A stretch of DNA of 59,536 nucleotides, the filler included, from Jimgerdemannia flammicorona (Eukaryota), in assembly GCA_003990765.1 (NCBI GenBank). It is 3 parts of 3 records of this genome, joined end to end, with 100 filler letters (N's around TTAATTAATTAA, not from the genome) between each part and the next. Parts side by side here need not be neighbours in the genome. Positions count along the whole stretch, not along the records: positions 19,888 to 39,664 come from RBNJ01001853.1; 2 more parts are not named here. One strand, 5' to 3'. Position 1 is the stretch's first letter. Each line of letters opens with the position of its first letter. The notes beneath the pieces were generated by a model. That model did not search any database. It was not told where the DNA came from and worked only from the letters and a program-made list of their open reading frames with translations. The position numbers were made by a program, and so were the translations under genes. This document shows positions 11,107-39,612 of this stretch, piece after piece.

Positions 11107-11151
<45 letters not shown>

Positions 11152-12794: not shown

Positions 12795-14131
12795 TGTAAT
12801 ATGTCTGGCTCAATAGAGACAAATTATAAGATTGAGGTTGATGTAGTTTGGCTTGAGCCCCCAGTTACTTTGTCAAAAGCAACAAAATGTTCTTAGTGTT
12901 TAGTAGTATAATAGTTAAAAGCTGAATATCTGTAAGTGATTTATGTATTGATTTCCTTATTGAGACAGTTCTCTGGATATAGCAGTAATTTGTAAATGGG
13001 TTTCCTTTTTAGGTCAACTGGAAATTAGTAGAATTTTATATGTAGTATGAGTAGTTCCTTATATGGTGTGATTTGGCAATTTAGTGGTTTTCTTCTTGAG
13101 TGATGATTTCTGATTTCTATGTAATGATCTCTATATAGTGCAACAATCTCTAATTTCTGGTATGACAATCTTGTGTAGTGTGATAATCTTCAAAAGTATA
13201 TGATTTCTGGCAGATAACTTGATTTAGGTACAGCTTCCTGAAATTGCAACTTACTGGAAATTATTCTGATGGCAGATTCTTCTGTACCAGACTCACTGGA
13301 AATAAATAACTTGGATATTGTAGATTCTTCTAAATCAGGCTCCTCTTGGAATAATAACTTAGGTGTTGCAGATTCTTTCTGAATTGGCAGAGTTCTCTGG
13401 GAATGTAGATAACTCAGAAATGGTAGCTTTAACTGAGAAATATACTGGCAGCTTTTGGAAAAGGGTCTCTTGGCAAAGTTGCATCAAAGACTGACTTTAT
13501 TTGTACAAATGAATCACTGTAAAGTTATATCAGAAACTGGCTTGAGCAAGGTAACTTTCTCTTAGGTGGCAGAAACTTAGGTTTTTCAGACTTATCTGAT
13601 AAGCATATCAATAATAATAATTCTAAAGGTGATGAAGTTCTTCCTTAAACTTAGGTAGTAAACTCGAATTCTTCAGACTTAGTCTGGCAAGTGTACCAAA
13701 AGTGCAGCTTATTCCTTAAGCAGCAGGTTTCTCTTCAAAAGGTGGTGAAGTTCTTCCTCAAACTTGGTAGTAAATCTTCAGCTTTGTACATATCAGAAAG
13801 TGGACCAGAGTGGAAAGAGGACCAATGCTCAATCTTTAGAGACTTTTTTGGTATTTATATTTCAGACTGAGGTTTATTCACTCTTATCTCTGGGGTAATT
13901 TATACAGTTGTGATTACTATCTATGGTAAATATACAGATCTTGCACAGGTGTACAGGTCTTATATAGGTATGCAGATCTTGTACAGGTATATAGATCTTG
14001 TATAGATATATCTTATATGGTAGTCTGGCTATTTATACAGCTTTCTGCAGTAATGGTTGCTGGTTACTATGCTATGTGTTTATGTCATCTGGCTAAGTTA
14101 TAATTCAGGTGGTACATTTTGGTTTATCACA
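12795..14131 (-). repeat. 3' LTR of the 12795-19035 element
   Basis: TGTAAT...ATCACA; direct repeat of 17717-19035; homologous to 47385-48713. Confidence 0.92.
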
Positions 14132-17100
14132 TCAGCCCCTACTAAAGGATGGTCTGTCCTCAGGCTATCCTTTAGTCATCATCCCAGTGTGGGTAAGCAT
14201 CTTCTGTATCAATATCTGTTTCATCATCTTCATCATCTATACTATGGTTGCTCCATTCCAGGGGTTCTTCTTCCTGGCTTTTTGGCCTGGCTTTTTCGGA
14301 TCTGGCTTCAGTTATCTCCTCTCTTCAAAGTGTGGATTGCAACATCATGACTGAGATGGATCTTCTGATGCCTGCAGTCTCAGCAGTCTGAGTGTCTCTC
14401 ATGATTGCAATATTCTATTACTCAGAAATGATATTCCTGGTTGTTGATCTCTTGTTGTCTCAGGAATCAGTATACATCTTAGTTATATGTTAGTAGAAGA
14501 GTAGACAAGGAGTATACTTCTGTCTGGGTAAAAAGGCCTTGTTCTCTGAATCAGCTTTGCAACTTAGTGGTAACTTCTTGGAAGGTAGTTGACTGTACAA
14601 CTGTATTTGGAGATTCTGGTCTCTGGGGTCTCTGTCTCTCCTATTGGTCTAGTAGATGGCACTGATAGCAGTAGTCTCGGGGAGAGTTGAAGATCATTTG
14701 GTATAGATATCTTCCTAGCTAAAAAGTCTTCTCCTAGTGAGTTTCTTTCTTGAGAATAATAGTGATTGTACTGAGTTCTTCTTCCATATTCCAAGGGTCA
14801 TTTTCTTCAGGTGGTATCCAGTGAGAGTCATCCCAGAGAATGAGTTCAGGGACTTCTTCCTCTTTGGATACTTCTTCTTTCTTGGATGATTCTTGTCTCC
14901 AAATTGCTTACACTTCTGCAGCTTCAGCTGCAGGTGTTTCTGGAGTATGTCTGCATTTCTTCTTCTTCTTTCTATACTCAGAGTAGGTTATACTAGGCGA
15001 ATTCCTTTTTCTAATAATCTTGAAGGAGTGCTTGGAGCACTTGTATCTCTTGAGACAGGTGGGGCATTCTTTAATTTCTCCTGCAATAGCTCCAATGGTA
15101 ATAGGGACAGTGTTCTTAGCCCATACATTGTCTTCTGGTCTATCATCTACTAGGTTAATTCAGAGGTTGAGTCTGGGATCATTTCCATCTTCAGATTCTT
15201 CTTCCTCCTCTGTGGTAGACTCTTTACTACTGGCATATTCTTCTTTAATAGTGACCTTCTTCTTCTTCTTCAATTGCTCATAGCTGGTCATCTTAACTCT
15301 GTACTTCTTACCTCAGTAGTCAAACTTGAGTACCTGTTGACTGATGTCAACAACTGCATTTATTTCCTTCATCCAATTGGTGTCAAGAATCATATTATAG
15401 GTAACAGCTTCAGTAACAATAGCTTTTGGGATGGAGAACTGAATGTGTCTCAGAGAGATAGTGATATTTCATACTTCTCCAAGAGGTTGAGTTTGGGCTC
15501 TATCTGCTATTATGATGCTGAGGTTTGATGGTCCATCAATGGGCCATTAAAGGATATCCAGAAACTGTTTGACAATAATACAGACAGCTACTCCTGTGTC
15601 TATGAGGATTTTTGCCTTTTATCCTCTAATGTCTCCATATAGATAGGTGCTGATATATCTTTCAGCTGCTTGGATAGGGATAGGAACTGGTTCTTGCTGT
15701 GGGATTGGAACTCAGCCAGTGCTAGACCTGGTGGTTCTCAGCAATTTGTTTTGGACTCTAGCTAGTATCAGTTATAGGAACTGCAGAAGAGAGACTTTCA
15801 TCTTGGCCTCTTGAATCTTCTACCAGACTTTATTATAGATGTCTCTAGGTATGGTCTTTGGGATATACTTCCTCTTGGGCTTTGAAGCAGCAGGTTCCTG
15901 TTCTTCTTGTTCTATTTCTTCATCTTCTGGTAGTAGCTCATTTGTCTCAGAGACAAAAGGTAAAGGAGTCTGGAGAGGTGTTTCTATTTGTTCCTCTTCA
16001 TGTTCTTTGTCTTCCTCTTAGATTATTCTTCTGCTGATATTCCTGGATGGTCTTTCTATAGGTCACTTCTTTTTCTCTGCTAGATAGACTGTTTTCTGAG
16101 TAGTAAACTTAGTAGAGTATAGATCTAGATCACTATAGTCTTTACTGTTACTTACTTCCTTGAAATCTTCAATAGGATGGGCTTCAGCCTTCTTGTACTG
16201 AGTGTCATTTCTTCAATTTGGTGGTTCTGAGTCTCTTTGGTCATTTCTTTTGTTGTTACATTCAGTAGTATAGTATCTGAATTGTCCACAGTAGAAGCAT
16301 TGGTCTTGTGCTCTGTCTTGGACAAGGTACCTTCTTTCCTCTTACTGGTAGCTCCTATTATCTCTTAATGGATAACCTTGGCTCCTCTGTGGTGGGTATT
16401 CTCTGTTGTCTTGGTAGCTCTGATTTTCACATATGGTGAGTTTTTCAATCTGTCCAACCAATTGATCCAACTTGGAGCTGAGGTCTTAGATTTTACTTCT
16501 GTCCTTCTTTCCTTCTTTAGCTGGCCTTCTTTTCTCAGATCTTTCTTGTCCTTGAAGGAGTCCTTGTAGGGCTTTGACCAGGATGTCTTCTTTATCTTCT
16601 TTCTTGTCATGATCACTTCAGGTAGTTCCTTTCCTAACATCAAAAAATCCTTAGACTGTATTTACTTGCTCTTCAGACCTTCTAATATCTAGGGTGTAGA
16701 CATACTGAGCAATATTTGGGGAAATTCCATTCATTAAGATCATTGGACCTATGATGTCCTGGTTGGTGGCATTGAACCCAGCAGCATACATTCTCTTCTG
16801 GATTCTTGTAAAGAAGGCTCTGGGCAATTCTCCAAGATTCATCTTCATCCCCATAATAGATTCTTGAGCCTTGTGGTGAGTTTCATTTTCTGCATACTTT
16901 TTAATGAGCTAGTGGACCATGACCACATATTCTAGCTTATAAGACATTGCTGCTTATATCTGTCTTGCCAGTTCTGAATTTGGATCATTTGCTATTTGGT
17001 GGAAAATTCCTCTAGCTGGTCCTCTGAGCTGAGTCTTATAGATGGCAATTTTTCTTTCATCTGAGAGATTCCTCAGGGCTGTGATTCCTTCAATTCCATT

Positions 17101-17716
17101 AAGAAATTCTCTGGGGCCTTCCTCTGGATATTTTGCAAAGGTTGGCAATGAGGTGGCCATTTTATTATCACTTTCTTCTGATTCTGATTCTGGTCTGGAT
17201 TCTGATTCTGATTTACTTTCTGAGCTGTCACTGGAGATAGGAATACTTGGGTATCCTGAGGATAGTATTCTGGACCTTAGATGAGGTAGAATAAGCTTAG
17301 GTATACTTGTAGAAGCTACTTCTAATTCTGCAAGAGCTTGTGGTAAAGATTCTATTGGTAAGATTGATGGAACTAGTATGGGGTATCTAGCTGTAAGATC
17401 TCAGGCTTGTGTAATAAGATCTTCTAGTTCTTGTATAAGTTCTTTGAAATCTCCAACAGGGCCACTGGTGTTTTCTAGTTGATCTGGTTGGAAATTTCAG
17501 ACTATACTGGCTTCTGGTTCTGGTTATGATTCTTCTGATACTGGGTAGTTGGTAAGTCTTGATGTAATTACTTCTCTTCTTGTCCAGATACTGGTGATAA
17601 CTAGTTCTTCTGTAGTAGCAGAGATTGGTATTGTATCAAATATATCCAGTTTGACTGTGGTTCTTGTGAGCTGAAATATTATGTCAATTTTAAAATCTTC
17701 TCAGTTGAGCCCTCAA

Positions 17717-19035
17717 TGTAATGTGCCTGACTCAATAGAGGTAAATTACAAGGTTGGGGGTTGATGTAGTTTGGCTTGAGCCCCTAATTACTTTGTCAAA
17801 AGCAACAAAATGTTCTTGGTATTTAGTGGTATAATAGTTAAAAGCTAGATATCTGCAAGTGATTTGTGTGTTGATTTCCTTATTAGGATGGTTCTCTGGG
17901 TATAGCAGCAATTTGTGAATGGGTTTCCTTCTTGGATCAACTAGGAATTGATAGAATTTTGTATGTAGCATGAGTGGTTCCTTATGCAGTGTGATCTGGT
18001 AATTTAGCAGTTTTCTTCTTGAGTAACAATCTCTGATTTCTGTATAATGATCTCTGTATAGTATGACAATCTCTAATTTCTGACATGATGATCTTGTATA
18101 GTATGATGATCTCCAAAAGTATGTGATTTCTGGCAGATGACTTGATTTAGGCATAACTTTTCTGAAACAACAGCTTACTGGGAATTATACTAACAGTGGA
18201 TTCTTCTATACCAGACTCACTGGCAATAAATAACTCAGGTGTCACAGATTTTTCTGAATCAGGCTCCTCTAGGAATAATAACTTGGGTGTTGTGGATTCT
18301 TCCTAAATTGATAGAGTTCTTTAGGAATGTGGATAACTCAGAAATGGTAGCTTTAACTGAGAAATGTACTGGTGGCTTTTGGAAAAGGGTCTCTTGGCAA
18401 AGTTGCATCAAAGACTGGCTTCATTTGTACAAATGAATTACTGCAAAGTTGCATCAGAAACTGGCTTGAGTAAGGCAACTTTCTCTTAGGTGGTGGAAAC
18501 TTAGATTCTTCAGGCTTATATATCTAGCAAGTGTACCAATAACAATAATTCCAAAGGTGGTAAAGTTCTTCCTTGAACTTAGGTGGCAAACTTGAATTCT
18601 TCAGGCTTAGTCTGGCAAGTATACCAAAAGTGCAGCTTATTCCTTAAGTAGCAAGTTTCTCTTCAAAAGGTAGTAAAGTTCTTCCTCAAACTTGGTGGCA
18701 AATCTTCAGCTTTATATTGAAAAGTAGACTGAAGTGAAAAGAGGACCAATGCTCAATCTTTAGAGACTTCTTTGGTATTTGTATTTTGGACTGAGGTTTA
18801 TTCACTCTTGTCTCTGGGATAATTTATACAGTTATAGTTGCTGTCTGATTACTACATTACTAATTATAGATTACTATCTATAGTAAGTATATAGGTCTTG
18901 CACAGGTATATCTTATCTGGTAGTCTGGTTATTTATACAGCTTTCTATAACAATAGTTGCTATTTACTATACTATGTATTCACATCATCTGGCTAAGTTA
19001 TAATTCAGGTACATAGTATATTTTGGTTTGTCATA
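17717..19035 (-). repeat. 5' LTR of the 12795-19035 element
   Basis: TGTAAT...GTCATA with terminal CA decayed to TA; PBS immediately adjacent at ~17700-17716. Confidence 0.92.
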
Positions 19036-19787
19036 ATATATAAGTTAGATCTTATCTTTAGAAGAGCTTTAGATAATAAATATGCTTCATATACTCCAAT
19101 AGGGTATACTCTAGATATATAGTACTATTTTCTATATATTCTTATATAAAATAATACTATATATTAATATACTTTATTCTAGTATATATATAGAGTTCTT
19201 TACTAGAGTAAATATAAACTAGTTGTTTTGCTAGAGTAGTATAGAGTGCTATTGATTATATTCTAACTCTTTTAGAAGTTTACAAAGCTATATATATAGT
19301 TTCTTTTATCACTATAGATAATACTTAGTACTTTGCTTGTATAGATAATATTGCTACTAAAGATTACTTATATATTTACTATAAAATGACTTCTTTACTA
19401 ATTTTAAAGAAATATCTAATCATAAATTATCTATTATCTATATTACTAGCTCAATTAGTATTGTATATATTAAAGAGGTTTATAGTACTTCTACTTACTT
19501 CTTTGTTATTATTATTACTATTATTCAAAATAAGTATATAGTTCTTTATATTTTTTATATATCTGAATATATTATTACATAGTGGTTACTAAGTTCTTTA
19601 AATATGTCAAATTCTCTTCAAGGTGTATCTCTTAGACTAACTCAAGTTTGTTATAAGTAAGTTCTTATTGAAGTATCTTTCTAAGGTCTTATAGTCCTCA
19701 AACTTCTTATTTTTAACTGTCTTGTTATCTCTTAGATGGCTTGCAAGGAAGTGTGTATATTGCACTGAGAGGAACTGACTTTATTTC

Positions 19788-19887
19788 NNNNNNNNNNNNN
19801 NNNNNNNNNNNNNNNNNNNNNNNNNNNNNNNTTAATTAATTAANNNNNNNNNNNNNNNNNNNNNNNNNNNNNNNNNNNNNNNNNNNN
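19788..19887. other. Assembly gap with TTAATTAATTAA filler
   Basis: N runs around a 12-mer that is identical to the one in the second gap. Confidence 0.95.
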
Positions 19888-20063
19888 AAAAAAAAAAAAA
19901 AAAAAAAAAAACTATCAGGAGATTTTAAAAGTACTGAATGCTTAGCAGAGAGAGATAGATGAGCTTGAGGTAGAGTGGAATCTAGATATTACTGGTAATA
20001 TGAGTATGGAATTGCAGAGTAAGTACTTATTCTCTAAATATTATTCAATATGAACAGTATAAC

Positions 20064-20359
20064 TAGAGATCTCAGATAGTTAGCCATATGACCAATAGTT
20101 AGCCAGAGTGACTCAGCCTTAAATTTAGCCTAGCCAGCTAGTCAATCTATAAATTTAAGGCTGAGTTACTCTATCTTGACTTTAAATTTACAGCAAACTG
20201 GTCAAGTAGTATTTATGGACCTTTTATTTAATTTGGAAATTTTGGAAATCAAAATAGCTAAAGAAGACTAACTACTTGACCAACTAGCCAATCTATAAAT
20301 TTAAGACTGAATCACTCTGGTCAGCCATTGGCCATATAACTAGCTATCTGAGATCTCTA
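20064..20359. mobile_element. hAT-like MITE (296 bp)
   Basis: TAGAGATCTCAGATAG...CTATCTGAGATCTCTA with ~60-bp imperfect TIRs; perfect 8-bp TSD AGTATAAC (20056-20063, 20360-20367); removing it restores LINE ORF2. Confidence 0.93.
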
Positions 20360-20803
20360 AGTATAACTAGAATCTTCTCTTTGAATATTAATGAATTGAG
20401 AAGTATGACAAGATATTGAAATATTTTTAGCTAGTTAAAGAGACTAGATGTAGATAATGCTAGCTTGAATATATAAGACTGGATAAAAGAATAAAGAAAT
20501 ATAGCTACATAGTAGAGTCAGATGGATATTCTGGTTAGGAAAAGCAAGGGAGACATTGGGAACATTGGACATTGGGGGGGCAGAGTAGTATAGAGAGTGT
20601 GGAGGAGGCCAGGCTGAAGTCTTTTGACTATTGAGTTATATTATTGCTTAGTAGAAAGAGAGGAGTATGTGGAGTAGATAAGTGAAGTACAAAATACTAG
20701 TATTATAATAGCAAAAGAGATTGACTATCTGGAAAGTAACTTTAATATAATACATAATAGATAGCTAGACAGAACTAATAGAGGAAAAGAGATGGCTGAC
20801 AGA

Positions 20804-23800
20804 CCTTTCTCCAGTAATATTCAGATTATACAAACTTCTGGCAATACTTACAATATTGTTTTTAGAGAATAAGTATTAGTAATATGGTGATCAATAAGTA
20901 TTCTGAGATACATGCTGAGCAGAGTGGTTCTAGTGTATTCAATTAGCAATATATGGAGAAGAGTCATAGCTTAGAGGGGAGTTTACTAGGCTCTCTTATA
21001 GGTAGAAAAAGAAGTGGTAAAAATGGAGCTAGAGCTAGTAGACTGAGACCTGTAAGGATGAACTTTGCTGATAAGGTAAAGGTGGGATATCTATCAACTA
21101 GATTAGAAAGTTGGCTGACAAAAGACAAGAAGATGGCAAGAGCTACAGGGCCTAGTAGAGTAGCCTATAGTAGTAAAAGCAGTAAGGCTGGGGGAGTAGT
21201 AGCTGGGGAGAGCAGAACTGCTGATGGCAAGACTGCTAATCTGAAGAAAAAAAAAATCCAGATGTGATAGTTGATAGTAAATCTGGACAAGGGGTGGGCA
21301 CAAGGCTTAGTGATCTGGTAGATAGTATAATAGATCTGATAGTAGTATTATTACTTAAGAAATCAAGATCAGAATTTACTATCACATTGTGTTTCTGAGG
21401 CTTAGTAGTAATAATAAAGATGATTCAGAGGCTTCTGGTTCAGAAGGTAAAAGAGATAGTCTTAGTGAAATTTTTGAAGAGTTTGGAAGAGGTGGAAGTG
21501 GGCTTTGAGACAGAGGATATACTACTGAGAGCAATAGAGAAGAGAGTGATGGTAGGGGGGGGATGGTGATTTCTATAGCTTAGTGCTTATGCTGGGACCT
21601 CTGAGTAATACAGTTGATGATAGTGGATGTTATAATATTGAAGGAGATGGAAAGAGGGTTAATTGTAGAGGCTATTAAGGAGTATAGAGATATCATAGAT
21701 ATTGGATTTTAGGTCTGAGAAGATATAGATTTCAGAACAGAGAATGTAGATATTAGAGTAGAACTAGCAGATAAGAAGAATATGGAGAAAGCAAGAGACT
21801 GGCCAGTAGTCCTCAAATGGGAACCTATAGAGTATAAGATCTCAAGAGTAAAAAGGATACTGGAGGAAGATAAGGACTTACTAGAGATATTGAAGGATTT
21901 GACTGGGGTTATTAAGAGGAAGAGATTGGCCTAAAAAGAGTTTTAGGCTAAAACAGTAGTGAAGATCATAAATAGTAAGAAGGTGTGGCTAGATTGGATA
22001 GCCTAGGAGAGGATATAGAAGAGGTGAATTTAGAAAGATCTGTTGGCAAAGTTAGGAGGAGGAGCAGAGAGGAGGACTATTACTGCAGATATTAGATTGA
22101 AGATGAGTATCTGAGTAGAAAAGAAGAAAGCAGTACCAAAGAAGACTCCAGGGGAGAGTAGAGGCTCAGAACAGAGTACAGTAGTAGAAGATGAGAAGAT
22201 AGAGGAGAAGGAGCACTCTCAGTATAAGGTGCCAGCAGAGACTAGAGGGGATGATAAACTGCAGGATATATTGAAGAAAAATTAGAATGAGTTAATAAGG
22301 ATGAATTAGAAGAGATAGTAGATGGAAGGGATGAAGAGGGTGGTCCAGAGAGTGGAGAAGGCTATTGATGAGATGAAATGACTGTGAAAAACACTAGTGA
22401 ATATAGTAGCAGAGAAGCTAGAGGAGGAGGACTTTTGAGTGCTTAGTGAGAGACACTGAAGAGAAATTCTATAAGATAAGAAGGTGCTATAGAAACTCCA
22501 GGATGAGATAATGGTAGCTTTTCTAAAAGCTGAAGCATATTAAGTAGATGATGAAAGAGAGGTAGTATTTTTGATAATTGTAAATAACTAGGCTGCTTAT
22601 CTGTAGAGTCTGAGAAAGAGACTGACAAAGTAGTAGGTAGTATGTAAAGAGTACTAGATAGATATAGAAGCTGTGGATAGTGTGGATTATAAAGAGATCT
22701 TGGAGGCATTGGAGGTATAGTAGAGAGAGATAGATGAGCTTAAGGCAGAGAGGAATCTGGATATTACTGATAATGCAGTGAGTATTAAATTGTAGAGTGA
22801 GTAGCTGTTCTTTAAAAAACATTATTCAATATAAATAGTATAACCAGATTTTTTTTTTTAAATATCAATGAGCTATAAGGAGTAGTGAGATATAGAAATA
22901 TCTTTTGCTGACTAAAGAGGCTAGAGGTAGATTTGTTTCTACTATAAGATATTAGATGTGATAGAGACTTAGATACTCTAAACTAAATGAAAGAATAGAG
23001 TGATGTGACTGTTTGATATGGGTATATGGGTATTCTGATTAGAAGAGGTAAGAGAGATATTAGAAATATTAGATATTAGGGGAGCAGAGTAGAGTGGGAG
23101 TTTGAAAGAGACCAGGCTAGAGATCCTTGACTATTGGGTTATATTATTGTCCAGTGGAGGGAAGAGAGAGTAGAATAGATTTAAGAGCTACTAGAGTCTA
23201 GAGCATTAATGAAGGTAGGGATTGACTATTTAGATGGTGACTTTAATATGATATGTAATGGGAAGGTAGATAGAACTGATGGAGAAAGGGAGATAGCTGA
23301 TAAGAGTAGTAGTATAGAAGCCTGAGAGGAAGTTGAATATCTGAGTTCACTGAGAGGTTTAGATGGAGAGATTGTAGGGTCTATACTTACTGAGTGACAG
23401 AATTAGACTTAAGAATTGACTGAATGTTGACTGCAGAATGCTGGAGAGTTAATATTTAGAGAACTTTGAAATCTGTTTAGTATCTGTAATCAGATCACTG
23501 GGGTCTTCTAAGAGGGGGATGTTTTGGGAGAAGCAGGGAGGAGCCTAGACATTGACATCTGAATATCTCATTTCTAGAGGAGAACTCCTTATAGGATATA
23601 TGGGTAATAGATATGTATTAGCTCCAGGATACTTGGCTGGAGAGTAAAGGGACTGGTGATTGGGGATCACTAGAGGAGATTGAAATCAGATATACAATAC
23701 CACTAGGGAGAGACAGAAAGGATATAGGATACTTAGAGGAGAAAGTGAGTGAGGTGGATCTTTCAGAAGTTGGTAAGGTTGTTAGTGTTATGGGCAGATC

Positions 23801-26567
23801 TGTTAAATGATGGCAAGGAGAGAGATTGGAGGATCCAGCAGATCAGGCTAAAGGTAGAGAAGTTGAAGAGGTTTCTGAGACAAGAGGAAGATCTACAGAT
23901 AAAGAGTATAGTAGCTCAGCTGTGATAGTAGGAATTAGAGAAGAGAGAGAGGTCTATAAAATTTTATCTTGACTTCTGCAGGTGAGGAGAGTATGATAGA
24001 GATGGGAGAGTGTGTTAGATGAGATAAGAGAGTTGGTAGTTGAGATACCAGAGATTTTGGACTAGCTGAGCAAATAGTGGAGACAATTATAAAGTAAGAA
24101 GGAAGGAGAGGTGGAGGTGCTGGATATTAAAAGGTATCTGAAGAATAGTACTCTAATCTGACAGAGGGCTTAGGTGACCTTGATGCTTCTGTCTGAGGAG
24201 AGGAGATTCAGCAGATACTAACAATAATGAGCTTAGAGATAGTACCAAAGAAAGATAGCCTACCATGAGATTTTTGAAAGAAGATGACAAGAGTTAAGTT
24301 AGTTCTAGAGGAGATAATAGAGATGTATAATGAGGTCATTAGCTCAGGAGAGTAGATTGGGGGACAGTGCTTGGGTCTTGTGGCTCTGTTATTTAAGAAT
24401 AAGAGAAGAAGAGAGAAGTGGAAAAACTGGATACTAATCATGCTTCTGGATATGGATTATAAGCTAATCATGAAGATACTAGTGGCTAGGCTATAAGAAG
24501 TAGCTCAGCAAGTACTGGAGACTGAGCAGTGAGGGTTTGTAGAGAGATGGCTGATCAGAGATAAGATAGCCTGGATATATGATATCATCAAAGAAGCTTA
24601 CACTACTGGAGTAGATAGATATCTGATTTTTTTGGACCAAGAGAAGACCTATGATAGAGTCTGACAAGTATGGTTAAAAGGAGTACTAAAGCATATAAGG
24701 GTCCCCCCAGGGGTCTGGTGGATCTTGGTCAGTCTGCTAAAAGGGAGTTGGACAGTAATTCTGATAAATAGCTATAGAGGGGTTTCATTCTCTCTAGGCA
24801 GAGAAGTGTCATAGGGGGATCTACTGTTACCAATTCTGTATATATTGTCCCTAGAGCCTCTTTTGGATAGAATTCAGTAAAAGGTGAGGGGGTTGAATAT
24901 TCTGGGGATTAATTGGAAGATGAGGGCCTTTACTAATAATATAGTAGTCAGATTAGGGTTGACTGAAAATATAGTGATGCTGAAAGGTACAGTAAAGTGA
25001 TATGAGGAGTACTTAGATATTAAGCTCAACTAGTATAAGTATAAGACCTTAGTGTTAGAAGGAGAGATAGTAGATAGAGATGTAATTAGAATAATTATTC
25101 CTATAAGAAAAGCTGTTTGTTATCTGAAGATCTACTTCTTGGTATATGGTTTCTTGTTAACTCATAAATAGTGGGAGCAGCAGTTAGCAGAGTAGGAGAG
25201 TACTCTCTTGAGATAGGGTGATCATTATATATCTCTGGCAGAGAGGGTGATAGTATTGAATATATATATACTGATTATCTAAGCTATATTATCTGGAATA
25301 TTACTTGGACTTTCCAGTATAAGTAGTTAAGAGATTATTGAAGATGATCAGGACCTGGATATAGATAGGACAATAGAGTCAGATTGGCTAGGAGGTATTG
25401 ACCTTACTAGTAGATTAGAGATAACTGGGTCTGATGGATTTTTCCAAGCACCTTCATACTTGTGAGCATGATGGCTGAAGTGAGCTAGTGAGTTGAGGAG
25501 TGGAGAGTGAGTATCTCTCATGCAGAGAGTGTGAGAGGCCTGGTTCTCTCTCTGTGGTGTGACTGGAGATCTACTATCTCTAGTGACTTTGGAGAGGAGT
25601 CAGAGGATGTGCTTTTGAGGATTCTGGTGGAGAGTGGTTGATGGGGCTCATTATATTGATCTCTGATAATGGGGTAATGAGGGGGAGAAGAACTGGGGGT
25701 CTCAGATGTAAAGGTAGAACTGCCTTCTATTGGGCAGGGTACCAGTGGATGACTTCTGTTTAGAGGATAGCATGGAGTGTCTTTGGGAGCATGAGAGGGA
25801 TCTGTGGCCTAAGATATAGTAGAGAGAGAATTAGAGAAGAGTGGAATTAGAATGGCATTTAGTTATAGAGCAAGCAGACAGTAAGATGGATTTCCCTAAA
25901 GTTCTGAGTAGTATGGTGGAGACTTCTATAGTGTAATATAATATTAAACTACCAGTCAGATCATTTGGTAGAAAGAGATATCTGAGAGTATGAAAAGTGT
26001 CTAAATATCAGATAAGAGAGAAGAGTAGTATAGATATATATCTAAATATTAGCTAGAGAAGTGTGAGGTAATGAGAGACTTTTGAAGAGTAATTAAGGAG
26101 TAACTAAGAGTATGCTCACTAGAGCAGATGGTGGAAGAGAGGTGAGATGACCTCTGGAGGAGACTGATAGGGAGGTTGGGAGATAAGTGACTGATGTTAG
26201 AATGAGTACTGGTTATTTAGATCAGACTTATCAGATATTAATTATATGTATTTGAGGAAGGTCAATAGCTGATACTAAGAATGAGAGTTGCTAGATAAGA
26301 GTGGCTAATGTTGGACTTGTTGAATGGGTGGTAGAGAGGGTGAAGTACTAGTTGAGAGTATTAGTAGTAACTGATAGAGACAATTTGTAAGAAGAGTGGA
26401 GGAAGGATTGGGGTAGTAGAGAGGATGGTAGTATTTTGGAGAAATGGTGAGAGAAGGGAGAGGCTTTCTTGTGAGATTGGATGAGAGATTCATTGGTATT
26501 AGTATAATATAGATGGTTTGATAATAAAGTAGAAGTCTTTGTGACTATATGTAAAAAAAAAAAAAAA
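20804..26567 (+). mobile_element. Apparently full-length (5.76 kb) decayed L1-clade LINE: ORF1 ~20953-22834, ORF2 ~22831-26500, poly(A) tail
   Basis: ORF1 has NFADKVK and RRM-like EAIKEYRDIIDIGF; APE FLNIN and SDH; RT DQEKTYDRV; A-tail 26553-26567; 17-bp TSD 20787-20803 / 26568-26584 differing only by transitions. Confidence 0.9.
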
Positions 26568-29500
26568 GGGAGATGGTTGATAGGAGTGGAGAGATGAATG
26601 ACTGTGAGAAGATTGAGAGGTTGAGCTTACTAATAGATATAGGACACCTTGGGTAGAGAGATCACAGGATCTATACTTATTAGATAGTAGAGCTGAGATC
26701 AAGAATTGATTAGATATTGACTGCTGAGTGCTGGGAAGCAGATGTCTGGAGTTCTCTAAGGACAGTTTAGTATCCTTAGTCTGACCATTAGGATTTACTG
26801 GGTTGCAGAAGATTTAGAAGAAGTGGGGAGAGATCTGAATATTAGTGTCTGAATACTTCTTTACTAGAGGAACACTTCTTGTGAGATACATAGGTAGTAG
26901 ATATTAGCTCTAGAATTATTAGCTGAAGGACACAGAGGCTGGAGATTGGAGATTGTTGACAGTACTTGAAATACTTAGTAGTTCTTAGGTAAGACTAGGA
27001 GGGAGAGGGGTACTCAGAGGTTGGAGAGACTACTGAAGAGGTAGGCAGGATCTTTAGATAACAGAGAAGAAGGGAATTAGAGGGTTCAATGAATCTGACT
27101 AGAGGTGGAAGAATTGGAGAAGCTGCTCAGACAGAAGGAGGAATTGCAGATAAAGGGTATAGTAGCTTAATTGAGGTGGCAGGGCTTGGAGGAGAGGGGG
27201 AGGTCTATAAAGTTTCTGTTAAGACTACTTTAGATAAGAAGGACAAGACAGTGGTGGGAAGAAGTATTAGATGAGACAGATGATATAGTGATCAGGATAC
27301 TGGAGATTTTGGGCCAATTGAGATCTTAATGGAGACAATTATAAAGTAAGAAGAAGAATAAAGAGGATATACTGAACATTGAATAGCATCTAGAGAATTA
27401 ACACTCAGACCCAGCAGAGGGCCTAGATAATCTTGGAGTTTCTATCTATGAGAAGGAGGTCTATAGAGTTTTAGTAATGATGAGTCTTGGGATGACTCCA
27501 GGAGAGAATGAACTGTTTTAGAATTTTTGAAAAAGGATGACTAGTATGAAGGTGATACTGGAGGAGATAATATAGATATATGATGAAGTTATTAGCTCAG
27601 AGGTCTGAATTGGAGAGCAGTGCTTGGAGCTTATAGCTCTGTTATATAAGAATAAGAGAGGGGGGAGAATTGGAAGAATTGGAGACCAATTATACTTCTG
27701 GATATAGATTGCAAGTTGGTGATGAAGATACTGATAACTAGGTTGTAAAAAATGACTCAATAGATATTAGAGATAAAGTAGAGAAGCTTTGTCAGAGATT
27801 ATTTAATAAGAGATGAAATAGTATAAGTCTATGATATCATTGAAGAAGCTTGTACTACTGAGTTAAATAGTTGACTAGTATTTCTGGACTAAGAGAAGAC
27901 TTATGACAGAGTTTGGCATATATGGCTGAAGGGAATACTGAAGTGAATGGAGGTTCTCTCAGAGTTTAGAAAATTACTAATCAGTCTGTTGAAGGAGAGT
28001 TAGGCAGCTATTATAGTAAATGAATATAGGAGAGAGTTATTTCCCCTAGACAGAGGAGTGCTGCAGGGAGATTCACTGTTACTAATCTTTTATATCCTCT
28101 CTCTGAAGTCATTATTAGACAGAATTAGGTATAGGGTGGGAGAGTTGAATATTCTAGAAATAAACTAGAAGGTGGGGATCTTTGCTGATAATATAATAGT
28201 AGGACTGAACTCTGTAAAGGATATAACAGTGCTGAAGAGTATAGTAAAATAATATGAGAGGTACTCAGATACTAAGCTTAACTAGTATAAGTATAAGACT
28301 CTAATCTTAGATAAAGGAATAGTAAAAGAAGATATGATTGAAATAATTGTCTCAGCAGGAGAGGTAGTCTAATACTTGAGAATTTACTTCTTAGTATATA
28401 GTTATATATTGTCTCAGAAATAATAAGAGCAGTAGCTGATTGAGTGAGAAGATACTCTCTTGAGATAGAATAGTTAATATGTATCTCTGATAGAAAGGGT
28501 GATAGTGTTGAATATATATTAGCTATCTAAGTTATAGTATCTGGAGTATTACTTGGACTTCTCAGTATAGGTGGTTAAGAGGCTTGAAGATAGTCAGATT
28601 GACTGAAAGATGTTGACATTGATAGTAGACTGAAGAGAACTGAGTCTGGTAGACTTTACTAAGTATCTATACTACTTGAAAGTATTGTGGCTGAAGCAAG
28701 CTAGTAAGTTGAGGGATCAAGAGTGAGTATCTCTTATATAGAAAGTATGGGAGATAAATTTCTCTCTCCAGAATATATCTGATGACTTGCTCTCTCTAGT
28801 AGTACTGAAGAGGAGCTGGAAGATATACTATAGGGAATTCTGATAGAGAGTAGTTGATGGTACTCATCAAATTGGTCTCAGATGGTAGAATGATAAAGAG
28901 AAGGTAGACTGGAGATCCCAGATATAGAGATGAGATTATCTTCTATTAGAGGACATACTAGTGAATAATTTTAGTTTAGAGAATAGCTTGGAATATTTTT
29001 GGAAGTATAAGAGAGATTTATAGCCAGAGATCTAATAGAGGGTAAAAATCAGAGAGAAGTGAGACTGGAACAGTATTTAGTCTTAGAGCAAGTAAGTGGT
29101 AAGATAAATTCTTCCCAAGTTTTAGATGATATAATAGAGACTCTTGTAGTATAATGTGATGCTGAATTATAGGTTAGGACATTTAGTAGAAAGGGGTGCC
29201 TTAGAGTATAAGAAGTACTTTAATATTGGGCAGGAGGGTAGAGTAGTACAAACTCCTGAGCATTGGCTAAGAGAGTGTAAGATTATAAGAGACTTTTGGA
29301 GAACAATCAAGAATCAGTTAAGGATATAATCTTTTAGATAGATAGAGGGTAAGAGGTGAGGTGATCTCTAAAGAAGACTGATAAAAGAGGTGGAGGATGA
29401 GTGGTTGACTATTGGGTGAGTTCTGGCTATCTGGGTTGAGCTTACTGAACATTGACTATATGTATTTGAAAATAATCAGTATTTGGTACTTAGGGCATAA

Positions 29501-30334
29501 GTTGTAAGATAGAAATAATTATTACTAGACCTTTTAAATAGTTAGTAGTAGGAGTGGAGACCTAGAGAGAGGCTCTATAAGAGGCTTGTGGAGTATATTT
29601 GTAAAAAGAGTAGAGAGAGAGTTAAGGTTACTAAGAGGTTGGTGACTCTCCAGAGAGATAAAGAAAGAGAGAGAGAGAGAGGGAGAAGAAATTCTATATA
29701 GAATTGGGTGAAGAGTACATTTGTATATCTGTATTAGTATAACATAGAATGGAAGGTAATAAAGTGAAAGTCCAAGTAACTAAATATATATATATATATA
29801 TATATATGTGGATTTGTTTTTGTTCTCTTACTATGGAAAAAAAGACTATTTAAGACTAGTCAAGTGATTTTAACAAATTTGATAGTCAATATTGATCACG
29901 ATTTTTTGAGCGGCGTTGAATACCAATTTAATTAAGCGCCTCTACATTTCTCTATCTGCTCAGTATACTTTTGGGTGTTGTCTTTATAAGCCAGAAATGA
30001 GGATAGGGAGTGACAAGCCCTGACTTTAAGCAGAGCAGTTAATACATTCAAGAGGCGATTTGGTCCAGGCTCCAGAAACAGCATCCACTCATCTCCCCCT
30101 GCAAAGAAAATAAAATCCCCCCGAAAGCGCCACCTTGCATCGCAAGCCTGCTCGGTCATACGCTTGCTTTTGGACTCTTCCGACGCCTTGTGCAGTTGAA
30201 TCAACGTATTAGAACAGCTGAATGCATGACGTCACCCTGCCTGTAAACCCAAAATTGTTTGCCGCTGGCTACTTCTGTCTCTAGATTTTTCTTTCCATTT
30301 CGACGCGTGCCGCCCATAAAAAAAATTAAACAAA

Positions 30335-31284
30335 ATGATTCATAACGACGAATGGCGCCCGGAGCCTGAGATCAGCGCAACACACCAACCTGAACATGGA
30401 GAGGTTTATGAAGAGGAGACTCACGCCGCGAAGCATCAACCCCAACGGGGCCCTGCAAAACGTGTTGCAACTGGCCCTGTGAGGAAGCTAACTGAGGAGG
30501 AGCAAAGGCTGCGTGACATCGAGAAATACGAGGCCCATATCTTCTATTCGAACCGCTACTATGGTAGGCAGCTCCGCTTCGCCTAGCATTGCCCTCACAC
30601 GGGTAGTGGATGGCGACATTGGACAAAGAATCACCTTTCATCGTGTTTTTTGCTACTCGTTGTTACGATTATGCTCATACCCGTTGTTTCTCTGCGTATT
30701 GGTGTCGACGTTATTTGCACGTGTAGACGATGAATGCGAATATAGGCAAGCCGGGTTTCTATTTTGCTCAGCAACAAGAATGCCACCATACTCTTTCTTT
30801 TTGCTATAGTCAACTTATCGACTTGAGTCATATTTTCTCTTGACACTGCATTTGCCTCTGCAGGCACGTTTCCCTCCCCAAGACCTTGCTTAAATATGTA
30901 CCTCAGGGTCGGCTTTTGTCCGAGCCGGAATGGCGCGGCCTCGGGGTGAAGCAGTCGCAGGGATGGGAGCATTATATGGTGCATGGTGAGCATGAAATCG
31001 GATTTGGGTCGTTGAAATATTGTGTCATTTGTCGGATTCTATCTCATGATTATCTATTACGATTTAGCGCCCGAGCCTCACATCCTCCTTTTCAAGCGTG
31101 AGAAGGACTATCAGCAAAAGGTGAGTGGCGGCATGTATATTGAATATTTGACAGATACGAAAGCTTTGCTAAAGAGAGAACGACTGGAAAACCTCTGCAA
31201 TGCTGTCTCTATAATGACATTTGCGGGAACACTACTTCACCCTTACAGTATCCCAACGGCAAGCCAGATAATGTAGAGGCGTGA
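30335..31284 (+). CDS. CKS1: Cyclin-dependent kinase regulatory subunit (Cks1/Suc1), 152 aa; exons 30335-30563, 30727-30745, 30864-30985, 31068-31120, 31249-31284
   Basis: Spliced product has [56 protein letters not shown], the CKS signature; exon lengths sum to 459 nt. Confidence 0.96.
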
Positions 31285-31710
31285 CCATACATCACGCTGA
31301 TGACCTAATCGGACTTTCATTAGACCCTTATGTGGGGACCCAAATACTGAACAATCTGTCTTTTTGTACTGATGGGTTGATTGACAGAATGGAAGATCTG
31401 TTGCAATTGATGCGAGCTTTCTTTACTGCTTATTCCAGCCGTATCCAATTGTTCACTTTCCTTTTTGCATTATCCAACACCCTTTGCTCAAAACATAGTA
31501 CGTTGTGGCTGAACATATTCGTTTTGGAGGGTTTCATTGAGGTTTCTCTTTCTCACTTTTTATACCAATGTAAATGACTCTCATTGTTTCGTCGTTCATG
31601 GCTTTCCCACATAAAATATTGTTGTGACTGTCTCACTCTTCGAGTCACACGTCACATGACCCCTTTCTTTTCTTTCAGCGGTTTGTCTTGTTCGTCTCCC
31701 TATGTTAACT

Positions 31711-33225
31711 ATGGCTGACGAACAATTACTGGCGACACCCGGCTCTGAGCACGATGAAGACTATCTTGGTGTGTTTCAGCTGCTTTTTCACTCTATATGT
31801 TCGAACTCGTACCCCGTTCTCACTTATCCCGTTCCCTTTGATCGTAGTAACTGATAATGAGAATGCTCAGGTCCCTCCTGTTCACTTCATTGTCACTCAC
31901 GGAAAGATCCCATACGAGCTTGAAATGTCACCACTCTCCACTGTGTTAGAGCTAAAACAGGAGATCGAACAGCGGACTCAGATTCCTCCCACGATGCAGA
32001 AGCTTGTTTACAAAGGTACCTTCGGCTTATAAAACGGAAATACTGCGTAAACTGCCACAAGCCCTAAGTTAAACCGCCGTACTTCAGAAGAATGGTTTCT
32101 TAACAGTTGTCATTGCCCCAGGCATGCTTAAAGACGACATGACCATCGATTCCTCCAAAATCAAGGAGGGTGTTAAGGTCATCCTCATAGGTTCTAAAGT
32201 TGAAGACGTCCTCAAGATGGCAACGTCACAAACGACCACGAAGGAGGAAACACCTGAAGGTATAAATGGGTCTCGTTACTGACGAAGTTACTACGTGATG
32301 GTGACTCGTAGTTAATCGACATATAATTTTCAGTCCCAGAGAAAATACCGTTGAGCGAATTGACGGTAGGGTATCATGCGGTATCTCGGTTATAATTAGA
32401 AACGGAGGCCGGTGCCCTATTAGTTATCATAACTCGTCTATTGCTTTCTTCCCTAATCCCAATTATCTCCACCTTCCTGTACCCAAAAACATCTTTCGGA
32501 AATTAGGAGCACAAAAAAATTATATCTAAAGGCAAGCCGGACGACATCGAACCTAGTATCATCGGCAGGAAGGTGCTATATTCCGGCAATTAACTTGTGC
32601 TATGTTATTTCTCAAAAATGTCTTTTTTTTTTAAAAAAAAAAGAAACCCCTGTTTTTGTTTCTCTCCGATCGATGGGATATTCAGTTACCTCTACCTCCA
32701 GGTAAAAGCATTAAAGGCATGCTCAATTCCCTCGGCCAGCGCACGCGACTGACCTTCAAGGACGATCTTGAGCAAGTGTGGATTGGGACAGCTGGTAAGA
32801 TGGATAGACTTGTCGAAGCTGAGGAGCAAAGTTATTCCTTTAGTAGGTGTTGCACATCATGTCATTCGCGTAGACTGAATCATATCATCTTCACATTTTT
32901 CAGAACGGACACAAAAGATTGCGTATGACAGCATCAAGGCCGTGCAATCCGAACCCATCCAGGGGGATGAGACATACTATATCCTGAGTCTGCAACTCGG
33001 GCCGACAGAGAAGAGCAGATACTTCATATACTGGGTGCCGGCGCAGTATGTCGAAACGATCAAAGTAAGTTTGCTGCTTTTGAATGAGGCCAAACCTAGT
33101 TTCGGTCACTAGGGTCTTATTTAATTTTATTCCGCCCATCTGCTATATTCACGCACACACCCCAAACAATATTCAAATAACCCTTAAATAAGGACACCAT
33201 TATGGGAGGCTTTGTCTACTTCTGA
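31711..33225 (+). CDS. UBFD1: UBFD1-like ubiquitin-domain protein; exons 31711-31768, 31848-32015, 32122-32259, 32334-32365, 32507-32572, 32686-32794, 32904-33064, 33193-33225
   Basis: UBL domain ELKQEIEQRTQIPPTMQKLVYKGMLKDD; C-terminal RLTFK, LQLGPTEKSRYFIYWVPAQYVETIKDTIMG typical of UBFD1; all introns GT-AG and in phase. Confidence 0.9.
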
Positions 33226-33557
33226 GCTGCCCCAAGTCACAGGGATGAATGGTGGAAACAAACATATGGTCTTGAAACTTACATGACATTTCGCTAGTCT
33301 AGAAACTTTGCCAATTTGTGTGAGTAAGGGGGTGGTCACCGTTGATTGATCTTTTAAGCGAGACGTGGAGTCAAAATATATAATTGTTTTCTTTAATTTT
33401 GGAGGATTCGTACATATCCGCACAGAACCTTTGATCCTATGAAATTCATCAAAAAGCATCTCTTACCTGAATACACCCACCCAACTCGCAACATCGCAAA
33501 TACCACAAGTCAACTATTTCCCCCCATTCTTGCAATTTCCAATCGTTTCACACGTCG

Positions 33558-33672
33558 GTCTTCCACTTTATCATGTATTTGCTTTCCCGCGCCTACGATC
33601 ACGCCAAAGATATCAAGTTCGTCTTCGACTTTGTCATGTATTTGCTTTCCTGCGCCTACGATCACGCCAAAG
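33558..33672. repeat. Tandem duplication with 63-bp period
   Basis: 33558-33609 is nearly identical to 33621-33672. Confidence 0.92.
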
Positions 33673-34181
33673 TCGTCGCATCTGGAAAGGATTACAATTT
33701 TCAGCGCGAAAAATCATGATCACTGACAACGTAACTGCGAGAGGTGGTAGCAAAAATTCGGACAAACCCCACTGTGATGACCAAAAACCCCATTATCCCC
33801 ACATATCATAATACTTACACGGCCATTGTGGACACCCAAAGTGAGAAGACGGCTCTATCGACTTGTATGGGATGTGACCTAGACGAGAAGCCGTGACATT
33901 GGTGCTCTACCCGAGCTTCGCGCGAACATCCGAATCATCGAAAAAGGACATCTCCGATTAGCTGACAGACAACCGCTTCTTTTTATTATTATTATTTCCA
34001 ATAAAATAAAATAAAATGCGAAACATCGGATTTCTGATCTTTGAATTGGCCAAACGCGAAAGGCTCGAAAATAGCTTCTGGGCTCAATAGAATATACATT
34101 GTGCTTTACGATAAAAAGAAAGAGTACCGTATTGCTATTGCTAACATGGGCACCAGTAGCCACCTGCATTTTGTTGTCGCA

Positions 34182-35594
34182 TTACGCAAAGATCAATTCC
34201 TTCACCTTGTCGTGCCTCGGGATAAAACTGACCTTATATGGTTTGGGCCTCATGACAATACCACTCTGCCACTCGTTAATGTTTGGTGCTTTTCCACCTT
34301 TCTCCACCTCAATCCTGTACGACCACAGCAGCAGCGCCGTCCCCATGAATAGCTCCGCTTCCGCCAAGAAGATTCCGGGGCACATCCGCCTTCCCCAGCC
34401 GAACGCCATATTATCTCGTTTCGCGATCGGCCCATTTGCAGATGCAGGAATAGATTCGGTCATGTCGAGGTAGCGATCAGGGTCGAATCTTTCCGGGTGG
34501 GTCCACCGCGAGGAATCCATGTGCATGGCATGCACATTGATCACGATACTTGTGTCGGCGGGGATATGATAACCTTCGTATGTGTCATCCTGAACCGATT
34601 GATGCGGGAAATTGAGCCATCCAATAGGGGGGCGGAACCGTAATACCTCGCGAATAATGGCTCGGATGAAAGGTAGGTTGGCTTCATCGGCTTGATTAGG
34701 GAGACGGTCTCGGCCAACCATGGCATCGAGTTCAGCATGTGCGCGTTCTTGAACAATAGGGTGTAATGCAAGAATCGCAGTGATCCAAGAAAGAGTAACT
34801 CTGTGCAATGGAGTGGTCAAGATTAATTGACATTTGTGATATTAGATGTTGACTCTAGGCAAGGTGTTATAGTGCATCGTCCCGTTTCTTCATGAATAGA
34901 GAGACGCCAGAAAATAAATTCATTAATTACATACGCGCTTGTATCCAACCCTCCGCCAAAAAGATCAATGAAGAGATTGTGCACATCAAAGTCATCGATT
35001 CCTTCCTCTTCCATGTGCTCTAAAATATACTCGGCTACGCATGGCTGCGTGATCCCGCACTTCTTGTCCTCTTTGAATTTGTCGAACAACTTTTTCGTTA
35101 ATGAAAAATAGCCATCCATAATCTTCTTTGCTTTTTTGTCCAAACCGATAGGCAGACATTGTAGAAAGGGGAGTAGATTGACGACAGCATCCGCTTCTGT
35201 GGTTGTGGACACGAAATGGCCGTTAATGAGTTGCTCAACTCTGGGTTTGATTTTATTGAAAATAAAACGCAAGAACTTACCGATAACTTGAAACGTGTCT
35301 AAGATATACTTCAGCAGGTCTTTGACCACTAGGTCATCAGAAGTCTCGAGCCGCTTGCCGTATATTACTGTGTGAATGACACCAAGCGTGCCTCGATGGA
35401 AGCTACCTTCAGGATCTATAGTGGCGTCAAATAGTTGTCGCATCGTCTCTATGCTTTCTATTTCGATGAGGGGCGTGTACGATTCTACCGCTCTCTGCGA
35501 CATGGCGTGGTGCACTGAGTGTCGGATGTCAATAAGGAATAAGCATCATCGGAACATATACACTCGATAACAAATGCACGAGCTCACTGTTCAT

Positions 35595-35638
<44 letters not shown>

Positions 35639-36262
35639 AGTTAGGGATAGCCGCGCAACCTACCGATTCGACGCATTTTACGCCAGTAGTCACCTAGATG
35701 ATATTCAGCAAGGGCAGCAAAATTTAGGACTCTCATGGACGTGTCATTTCTCATTTTTCCACATTTTTACTTCGGATGCGATACCTACCAGACGACGCCA
35801 ACACCCCCCTACTTTCAGGGTGGACTATCTCGTTCATAACGACGGTTTTATCCCTGTTGGAGTAGTTTGCGCCCCGTTTCACCAATAATTCATGGGCGAT
35901 ATTCGGGTCGCTAATGATCACCCAACGCTTGACGCCAAGCTGGACCTGAAAGATTGGTCCGTACATTTTCGCCCATTTGTTGAAAGTGAGATATGGTTCC
36001 AGGCCGACTTGAAAAATGTTGCCTGATGAAACAGAATGGTCAGAAGAATCGCAGCATTCGATGCATTTAGAAACAGGTTTGCAACATATACTAAGATTCC
36101 CAAAATCGAATGGGGAATATATTAATTATATATACCAAAAATTGGGAGTCCCTTTGGCCTAGGAAGAGGCCTACTTCCGTTGGGAAGAATTTTCTTGCTT
36201 GTCGAAGCATAGTAATAAAGGCCACTGACAAGCGACAGGAAGACAAGGATGGAAACGAGCAT
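34182..36262 (-). CDS. Cytochrome P450, 501 aa; exons 36262-36136, 36022-35789, 35693-35664, 35514-35281, 35196-34935, 34800-34182
   Basis: N-terminal membrane anchor, PRPKGLPIFGN, WRKMR, GGLDTSA (I-helix), EVLR, PERF, FGWGRRMCPG heme motif; exons sum to 1506 nt. Confidence 0.96.
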
Positions 36263-37053: not shown

Positions 37054-37140
<87 letters not shown>

Positions 37141-39479: not shown

Positions 39480-39612
39480 GGTATGAAGGTGCGGGAAGGA
39501 GCCAACTGCGGCTGCGGAAGGGGAGATGCTGGTAGCTTTGTGTGTGAGAAGAATGACAAGACAAAATTTATGACGTATGTAGCACCACCGGCTTTACCGG
39601 CTTTTGTGCCTG

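Follow-up and report, generated by a model that had tools for sequence, protein, structure and literature searches.

In a 59,536-nucleotide stretch of Jimgerdemannia flammicorona DNA (the window), positions 19888-29898 are free of CpG over 10,011 bases, and a CpG-rich gene island begins at the next position. This locus raises the question of which process removed cytosines from the transposons that it contains. Hypermutation resembling RIP (repeat-induced point mutation) counts in print as a trait of the Dikarya, mostly of the ascomycetes; J. flammicorona belongs to the Endogonales (Mucoromycotina), so the non-Dikarya taxon guessed in the initial annotation was right. That annotation also proposed a two-tier genome-defence mutagenesis. 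Transposon-restricted C>T mutation in two tiers is indeed present; its likeliest cause, however, is heavy non-CpG methylation and not a repeat-induced process.

Loss of CpG from Transposon DNA

The window contains 678 CpGs: 131 lie in 5936-8623, 480 in 29899-40230, and the other 67 are scattered. Between 14998 and 29899, none is observed against 432.5 expected from the base composition (14,812 non-N bases). The observed/expected ratio (o/e) of CpG is 0-0.09 in transposon DNA and 0.97-1.17 in the gene islands and their introns, where the CpA o/e is ~1. These counts bear out the earlier description of CpG-free repeats next to CpG-rich gene islands. The sharp borders described with it are real at 5936, 8623 and 29899; the one at 39.7 kb, on the contrary, is an artificial contig join. 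As the window consists of three contigs joined end to end, features spanning either linker are artificial.

1-19787: contig piece 1, followed by a linker; its gene product at 7987-8511 (minus strand) matches BC938DRAFT_474602 of J. flammicorona
19788-19887: artificial linker, N(44)-TTAATTAATTAA-N(44), located by mapping the N runs
19888-39664: contig piece 2, 19,777 bases, with the hypermutated stretch
39665-39764: artificial linker, N(44)-TTAATTAATTAA-N(44), read directly in the sequence
39765-59536: contig piece 3, 19,772 bases, after the second linker, with copies of the LINE family that pieces 1 and 2 also carry
5936-8623: gene island 1, CpG o/e 1.17, 130 CpGs
29899-39664: gene island 2, CpG o/e 0.99, with a UBFD1-like gene (plus strand), a P450 gene (minus strand) and a MAPKK-like kinase gene (minus strand)

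One family of long interspersed nuclear elements (LINEs) is common to all three pieces, which are three small samples of one repeat-rich genome; a repeat content of 73-77% is reported for J. flammicorona. At the border of island 2, the first CpG (29899) lies ~270 bases beyond the last LINE homology detected by BLAST (29628), and a (TA)n run at the LINE 3' end precedes it by ~90 bases.

Island 2 holds real genes, since RNA contigs (runs X1 and X2) have GT..AG splice joints over 30.9-33.2 kb and also over 37.6-39.0 kb, and Pfam domains (ubiquitin/UBFD1, P450 and protein kinase) are matched. The 14 introns defined by these RNA joints (1,692 bases) have a CpG o/e of 0.97, a CpA o/e of 0.98 and a TpA o/e of 0.88. 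In the transposon half of contig piece 2, the corresponding values are 0, 0.85 and 1.10, with a CpT o/e of 1.68. Because the introns keep normal CpG and CpA, the contrast between repeats and genes is not due to coding constraint. Within the window, the mutation is limited to transposon DNA and the genes are spared.

Spectrum and Sequence Context of the Mutations

The spectrum was obtained from alignments between repeat copies, which comprise LINEs and the long terminal repeats (LTRs) of a retrotransposon; RT stands for reverse transcriptase.

12795-14129 (plus): 5' LTR of the LTR retrotransposon spanning 12795-19033
17717-19033 (plus): 3' LTR of the same element, 82.8% identical to the 5' LTR
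47382-48711 (plus): third LTR copy, less mutated, GC 0.43, with 19 CpGs at 47592-48161 and one more at 48688
1-1785 (minus): LINE copy E1, GC ~0.5, CpG-poor, RVT_1 match at 1259-1507 (minus)
58122-59510 (minus): LINE copy F59, sister of E1
49918-51357 (minus): LINE copy D50, hypermutated, E1/F59 subfamily, GC 0.34
39995-43393 (plus): LINE copy C41, the least mutated (first tier only), GC 0.48, CpG o/e <0.1, endonuclease and RT Pfam matches
20803-26567 (plus): LINE copy 1 (A24), hypermutated, GC 0.38, 0 CpG, with a poly(A) tail, inserted in LINE copy 2
19888-20802 plus 26584 to ~29785 (plus): LINE copy 2 (B27), the older host, GC 0.36, 0 CpG
9939-11147 (plus): LINE fragment truncated on its 5' side, poly(A)-tailed, GC 0.47, 1 CpG

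Two of the repeat pairs are young. Between the 5' and 3' LTRs of the element at 12795-19033, 202 of 1,307 aligned sites differ, by 178 transitions and 24 transversions; these differences arose in situ, since the LTRs are identical at insertion. LINE copy E1, which matches other LINE copies too, is 85.8% identical to 58266-59510 in copy F59, and 176 of 1,245 sites differ (154 transitions, 22 transversions); the transversion distance between the two is 0.009 and the transition distance 0.115. Transitions thus outnumber transversions ~7:1 in both pairs. The fragment at 9939-11147 and its relative at 4650-5442 (GC 0.30) are separated by 204 transitions and 40 transversions.

For the context counts, only sites with the same neighbours in both copies were used, and both strands and both young pairs were pooled. 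A C/T difference is found at 9 of 9 CpG, 102 of 331 CpA (0.31), 64 of 247 CpC (0.26) and 21 of 304 CpT sites (0.07). By Fisher's test, CpA and CpC both differ from CpT (p = 4e-15 and p = 1e-9, respectively) and not from each other (p = 0.23). The 5' base has a small effect (rates of 0.17-0.25), and the base at +2 has none: CAA, CAC, CAG and CAT range from 0.31 to 0.35, CTN from 0.04 to 0.08. The rate is thus governed by the dinucleotide, through the base 3' of the cytosine, and not by a symmetric CHG rule (H being A, C or T), as expected of a cytosine methyltransferase.

By these alignment-based spectra, the non-CpG transitions that had been claimed for the repeats are real and well beyond chance: C>T is significant at CpA and CpC, and TA is found at former CpG sites, so that hypermutation is not restricted to CpG. 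The second tier is nevertheless narrower than the general CpH class first suggested, as it falls on CpA and CpC, and CpT is spared 4- to 5-fold in the pooled young pairs. Nor is CpA the preferred first target, CpG being ahead of it and CpC equal to it. Of 13 repeat pairs, 11 have CpT as the context hit least. The remaining two compare GC-rich LINE copies from different subfamilies and have transition to transversion counts of 256:240 and 238:204; their differences are ordinary divergence between source elements.

The same order is visible in base composition. From the gene islands to relics below 25% GC, the share of the surviving Cs that are followed by T rises from 0.25 through 0.33, 0.49 and 0.57 to 0.62. 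Copies at ~48-53% GC already have a CpG o/e of 0.02 together with a high CpA o/e (1.27). Across the four CpG-free classes of falling GC content, CpA o/e declines (1.27 to 0.76), as does CpC o/e (1.37 to 0.70), and TpA o/e rises to 1.20 below 25% GC. When context-free C>T change is simulated on the least mutated copy, the CpT share comes to 0.41-0.44 (standard deviation 0.01) and the TA/AT ratio to 0.92-0.96, against 0.52-0.60 and 1.13-1.24 observed in the mutated copies; when CpT is spared five-fold, the simulated values come much closer to both. The composite RIP index exceeds 0 in 29 of 70 CpG-free windows, in 0 of 26 CpG-rich ones and in 3 of 18 intermediate ones, with a substrate term inflated by CpG conversion. 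The classical RIP indices are blunted because the conversion of CpG to TpG and CpA feeds the CpA/TpG pool and masks the loss of CpA.

Order, Timing and Independence of the Mutations

That CpG goes first, as had been proposed, is evident from its complete loss even in GC-rich copies, and the passage from CG through TG or CA to TA can be followed directly in the LTRs. At 13 aligned sites, the younger third LTR (47382-48711) keeps a CpG and the two older LTRs align and carry only transition derivatives; the CpG is lost in 26 of 26 alleles. The dinucleotide in its place is TG or CA or, in 7 of the 26, TA, with some sites being TA where the partner has TG or CA. The reported change of the terminal CA to TA is present as well: the LTR end reads ..TCACA at 14129 and ..TCATA at 19034 and 48712.

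The direction was read from GC-rich reference copies. Sites that are C in both of two GC-rich LINE copies are T in the three AT-rich copies at rates of 0.52 (CpA), 0.36 (CpC) and 0.31 (CpT); for sites that are T in both references, the rate of C in the AT-rich copies is only 0.04-0.11. Polarising the LTR pair with an outgroup gave 68 G>A and 30 C>T against 26 A>G and 19 T>C. Since the reverse class probably reflects parallel mutation in the outgroup, undirected rates and GC-rich references were used instead.

The changes came after insertion, because both the LTR pairs and the target-site duplications (TSDs) differ by them. LINE copy 1 is flanked on both sides by LINE sequence (BLAST), its host being homologous to copy C41 at 26582-26871 (to 40127-40416) and at 27496-29628 (to 41076-43240). 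Its TSD (20787-20802 and 26568-26583) is 16 nt long and has four differences, all of them transitions; that of the truncated fragment (9923-9938 and 11148-11163), also 16 nt, has a single T/C difference. Both pairs agree with the earlier claim of transition-only TSDs, but the third one cited, at 3423/3862, is merely a 5-nt candidate (ATACT/ATATT). Host copy 2 is more mutated than the inserted copy 1 in every context.

A motif of the RT gene was found in each of the forms given by the initial annotation:

41861-41875 (plus): unmutated form, AAT TGG CAC AAA TGC, in an open reading frame with an RVT_1 match at 41648-42007
25028-25042 and 28280-28294 (plus): mutated form, AAC TAG TAT AAG TAT (AACTAGTATAAGTAT)
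50955-50969 (minus): mutated form, AAC TAG TAT AAA TAT (AACTAGTATAAATAT)

The shared TAG and TAT changes were tested for common inheritance and are instead parallel across LINE subfamilies. Copy D50 groups with E1/F59 (transversion distance 0.11) and not with A24/B27 (0.15-0.17), and E1 reads TGG CAT where its relative D50, as well as A24 and B27, read TAG TAT. Among 297 sites, the sister copies A24 and B27 share 59 mutated sites against 49.6 expected, and copies of different subfamilies share 53 against 42.5 and 67 against 55.7. Hot contexts explain this sharing, as the excess in sister copies is no larger than that between subfamilies. In runs tests on four copies, C>T and G>A changes show no clustering by strand (observed/expected runs of 51/48.5, 42/36.3, 43/44.2 and 23/27.0), although superimposed events would erase runs too. 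Such interleaving fits many independent events and gives no support to a few processive ones.

Origin of the Mutations

Any explanation has to account for the spectrum, context order, direction, post-insertion origin and confinement to transposon DNA observed here. The probable one is methylation of heterochromatic repeats at CG, CA and CC by a DIM-2-like enzyme, followed by deamination that is fastest at CpG; methylation is the presumed cause, the DIM-2-like enzyme its putative writer, and homology sensing would not be needed. The transposon DNA of J. flammicorona would be packaged as methylated heterochromatin, in which one or more DIM-2-like methyltransferases would methylate CpG, CpA and CpC, and CpT hardly at all. 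The 5-methylcytosine (5mC) would then deaminate, spontaneously or helped by the methyltransferase, giving C:G to T:A changes on both strands after insertion. CpG would be lost first and completely, CpA and CpC more slowly, and copies would drift from ~50% to 20% GC with age, while the gene islands, being unmethylated, would keep their CpG even in introns.

Heavy non-CpG methylation is the best supported cause because the context order equals the preference of Dim2 and because three DIM-2-class enzymes are listed for the species. In the available text of Möller 2021 (PMC8016269), Dim2 of Zymoseptoria tritici methylates CG, then CA, then CC, with CT almost devoid of 5mC, and raises mitotic C>T mutation at CpA in transposons; in this comparison, the mutation rate by context stands as a proxy for methylation. 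For J. flammicorona, part 234 of Dataset S1 of Navarro-Mendoza 2023 lists three DIM2-class proteins that carry a C5-methylase domain; BAH rows appear for two of them. The same source, as far as available, places DIM-2-like homologues in Endogonales and Glomeromycota and describes RID as exclusive to Pezizomycotina.

True RIP, in which a homology-sensing and probably premeiotic process would let a DIM-2-like enzyme deaminate duplicated DNA, like the RID-independent DIM-2/DIM-5 branch of Neurospora, is an unlikely alternative that nonetheless explains several observations. Endogonales are sexual and form zygospores. The mutation is limited to DNA that is repeated, the LTRs as linked direct repeats have suffered heavily, transitions dominate and the 3'-neighbour bias is that expected of a methyltransferase-like enzyme; a DIM-2 pathway of RIP is, moreover, described in the portion used of Badet & Croll 2025. 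Homology-triggered RIP is nevertheless not favoured, because CpG goes first, strand runs are lacking, and copies left without a similar partner in the window have kept decaying. Its prime target would have to be CpG and not CpA, C>T and G>A lack strand clustering, and even copies that share just 63-70% identity with any other copy in the window are down to 20-38% GC. Damage also grows with the relative age of a copy, and RID, in the account of Navarro-Mendoza 2023 cited above, is restricted to Pezizomycotina.

A process independent of methylation, either poor repair of heterochromatic repeats or an AID/APOBEC-like deaminase, would also produce a transition excess confined to transposons. It is rather improbable. 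The specificity of AID/APOBEC deaminases is set by the 5' neighbour, which has little effect here, whereas the 3' base decides; the LTR and TSD differences arose after integration and on both strands, not on complementary DNA; and the coincidence of the context order with a published methyltransferase preference is not predicted by such a process. Least probable is CpG methylation alone with ordinary AT-biased neutral decay, the shared changes being inherited from mutated ancestors. CpG loss is indeed the strongest component, the composite RIP index is positive in just 29 of the 70 CpG-free windows, and the species is labelled "no_rip" in supplementary file 12 of Badet & Croll 2025, as available. 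However, the 3' base changes the rate of non-CpG C/T differences 4- to 5-fold, and the observed composition lies many standard deviations away from the context-free simulation. Transitions exceed transversions 7:1 in pairs that started out identical or almost so when inserted, TGG CAT in E1 against TAG TAT in its relative D50 is a parallel change, and the shared-site excess is no larger for sister copies (59 against 49.6) than across subfamilies. CpG-only methylation with ordinary decay is contradicted here.

Several points weigh against DIM-2-like methylation as the origin. A 2026 review (PMC13297926, in its available part) gives 5mC as near-undetectable in early-diverging fungi, and 5mC at CA and CC would in J. 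flammicorona be read solely from the mutation pattern. The methylated CG sites of Z. tritici are not highly mutated (PMC8016269, available text), which makes the analogy partial. The sparing of CpT is weaker in older LINE copies, where CpC and CpT do not differ significantly (p = 0.29); saturation and subfamily differences probably contribute. The GC-rich subfamilies are an imperfect internal control, as these elements were under selection and are not a neutral baseline, and the sample amounts to 59.5 kb in three contigs with a handful of repeat families. Part 229 of Dataset S1 has no J. flammicorona row among its DNMT1 rows (Endogone sp. has one), and parts 238-239 have no Mucoromycota row among their DNMT5 rows. 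Endogone is listed with DIM2-class proteins too, as are Gigaspora and Rhizophagus, and Mucor and Rhizopus reportedly have no DNMT1. The absence of both enzymes, drawn from parts 229, 234, 238 and 239 and from a published assembly reported as ~70% BUSCO-complete, is a weak conclusion.

DIM-2-like methylation may, more tentatively, reach beyond this species: Endogonales would methylate by DIM-2-like enzymes alone, these would act as repeat mutators at CG, CA and CC, and the heterochromatin/DIM-2 branch of RIP-like defence would pre-date the Dikarya. The ancestor shared by Mucoromycota and Dikarya would then already have had this branch, and RID-dependent RIP would be a later ascomycete addition.

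Genes and Other Features of the Window

The P450 exon at 34182-34841 (minus) is 100% identical to BC938DRAFT_474607 of J. flammicorona; this exact protein match contradicts a Basidiomycota affinity of the P450 found with Protein Atlas. RNA contigs of runs X1-X3 give next to no cover on the transposon half (19888-29787), which has no bearing on silencing. Eight contigs of run X3, a root metatranscriptome, lie on island 2 exons (30400-39530), five of them at identities of at least 99%, and all three runs contain the spliced junction 30984/31067; that root material therefore contained this fungus, or a very close relative, in a transcriptionally active state. Contigs of X1 and X2 also have loose ends at 29838-29913 and 36667-36704 that continue into unlike sequence, which suggests either a short element that other transcripts share or the use of alternative ends.

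A CpG-rich tandem 10-mer (CCCACGCCCG-like) upstream of the kinase gene occupies 39613-39664, up to the end of contig piece 2. The intergenic DNA of island 2 has long homopolymer tracts of T and A (37026-37442 and 35571-35650).

Two stretches keep an intermediate CpG content (o/e ~0.45), namely 43967-44703 with 15 CpGs and 47592-48161 with 19. The former has neither a Pfam match nor a partner in the window. Both may belong to the most recently inserted or least methylated elements. Pfam likewise gave no match in the interior of the LTR element, in 43.9-45.2 kb or in 52-57 kb.

The sense strand of the LINE family has an excess of G over C, with a GC skew of +0.25 to +0.57 that is mirrored in the minus copies (regions 20001-30000, 40001-43000, 1-2000 and 58001-59536). 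As the least mutated copy already has a skew of +0.38 to +0.53, this looks intrinsic to the family and not a product of later hypermutation.

Published Record and Significance

Literature searches returned no paper reporting RIP-like mutation in Endogonales or Jimgerdemannia. Dallaire 2021, in the part available, relays that a RIP signature had not been detected in Mucoromycotina, and the k-mer screen of the kingdom by Badet & Croll 2025, as far as its accessible text goes, finds the signature solely in ascomycetes. The accessible supplements of that screen give further detail. File 12 has J. flammicorona as "no_rip", with 23 k-mers enriched in non-coding DNA and none in repeats over non-repeats; in file 13, TATA is enriched 4.0-fold in its non-coding DNA. 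According to table S1, this assembly is 73% repeats, its N50 is 10.9 kb and its longest sequence measures 94 kb. Since only scaffolds >50 kb were used, the contrast between repeats and non-repeats had little to work with in such an assembly.

As far as the literature searches reach, the two-tier combination, its CpC component and the lineage are new. The alignment-based spectra add a strong, context-specific and transposon-restricted C>T mutation in a Mucoromycotina fungus, one that window indices miss. If it is general, methyltransferase-linked repeat mutagenesis dates to before the Dikarya, the DIM-2-like genes of Endogonales and Glomeromycotina have a testable role, and the process bears on how transposons are kept inactive in a genome reported as 73-77% repeats.

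Comparison with Known Systems

Neurospora RIP prefers CpA first. The mutation described here resembles RIP of Neurospora crassa in that C:G to T:A changes are confined to repeats with a dinucleotide bias set by the 3' base, and in leaving stop codons in transposon genes (TGG to TAG) and AT-rich relics. RIP in N. crassa is RID-dependent, with a second branch that depends on DIM-2 and DIM-5; RID is reported absent outside Pezizomycotina, as far as the source extends. In J. flammicorona, on the contrary, the order is CpG >> CpA ≈ CpC >> CpT, without strand-coherent runs.

The hypermutation of basidiomycetes reportedly has a TpCpG detail. Its transposon-restricted loss of CpG without RID (Horns 2012, PMC3318451, in part) corresponds to the first tier. 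The second, non-CpG tier at CpA and CpC sets the present case apart, as does the lineage, Mucoromycotina and not Dikarya. Outside the Dikarya, a RIP-like composition together with DNA methylase genes is described for Entomophthorales in the available text of Stajich 2024 (PMC11105155). However, these fungi belong to a different phylum, Zoopagomycota, and the signal, covering 24.2% of the Zoophthora radicans genome, is there given by window indices only, with no alignment-based spectrum in that text.

The Dim2 system of Z. tritici (Möller 2021, PMC8016269, available text) is similar in targeting transposons with C>T changes governed by the 3' neighbour, and its methylation order (CG, CA, CC, with CT nearly exempt) is the order of loss found here. 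That process is mitotic and RID-independent. CG is rarely mutated there, whereas CpG is wiped out first in J. flammicorona; Z. tritici is, in addition, an ascomycete that has RIP too, and the present case is known from its sequence pattern. The first tier thus resembles the CpG hypermutation of basidiomycetes, and the second resembles Dim2-linked mutation and RIP.

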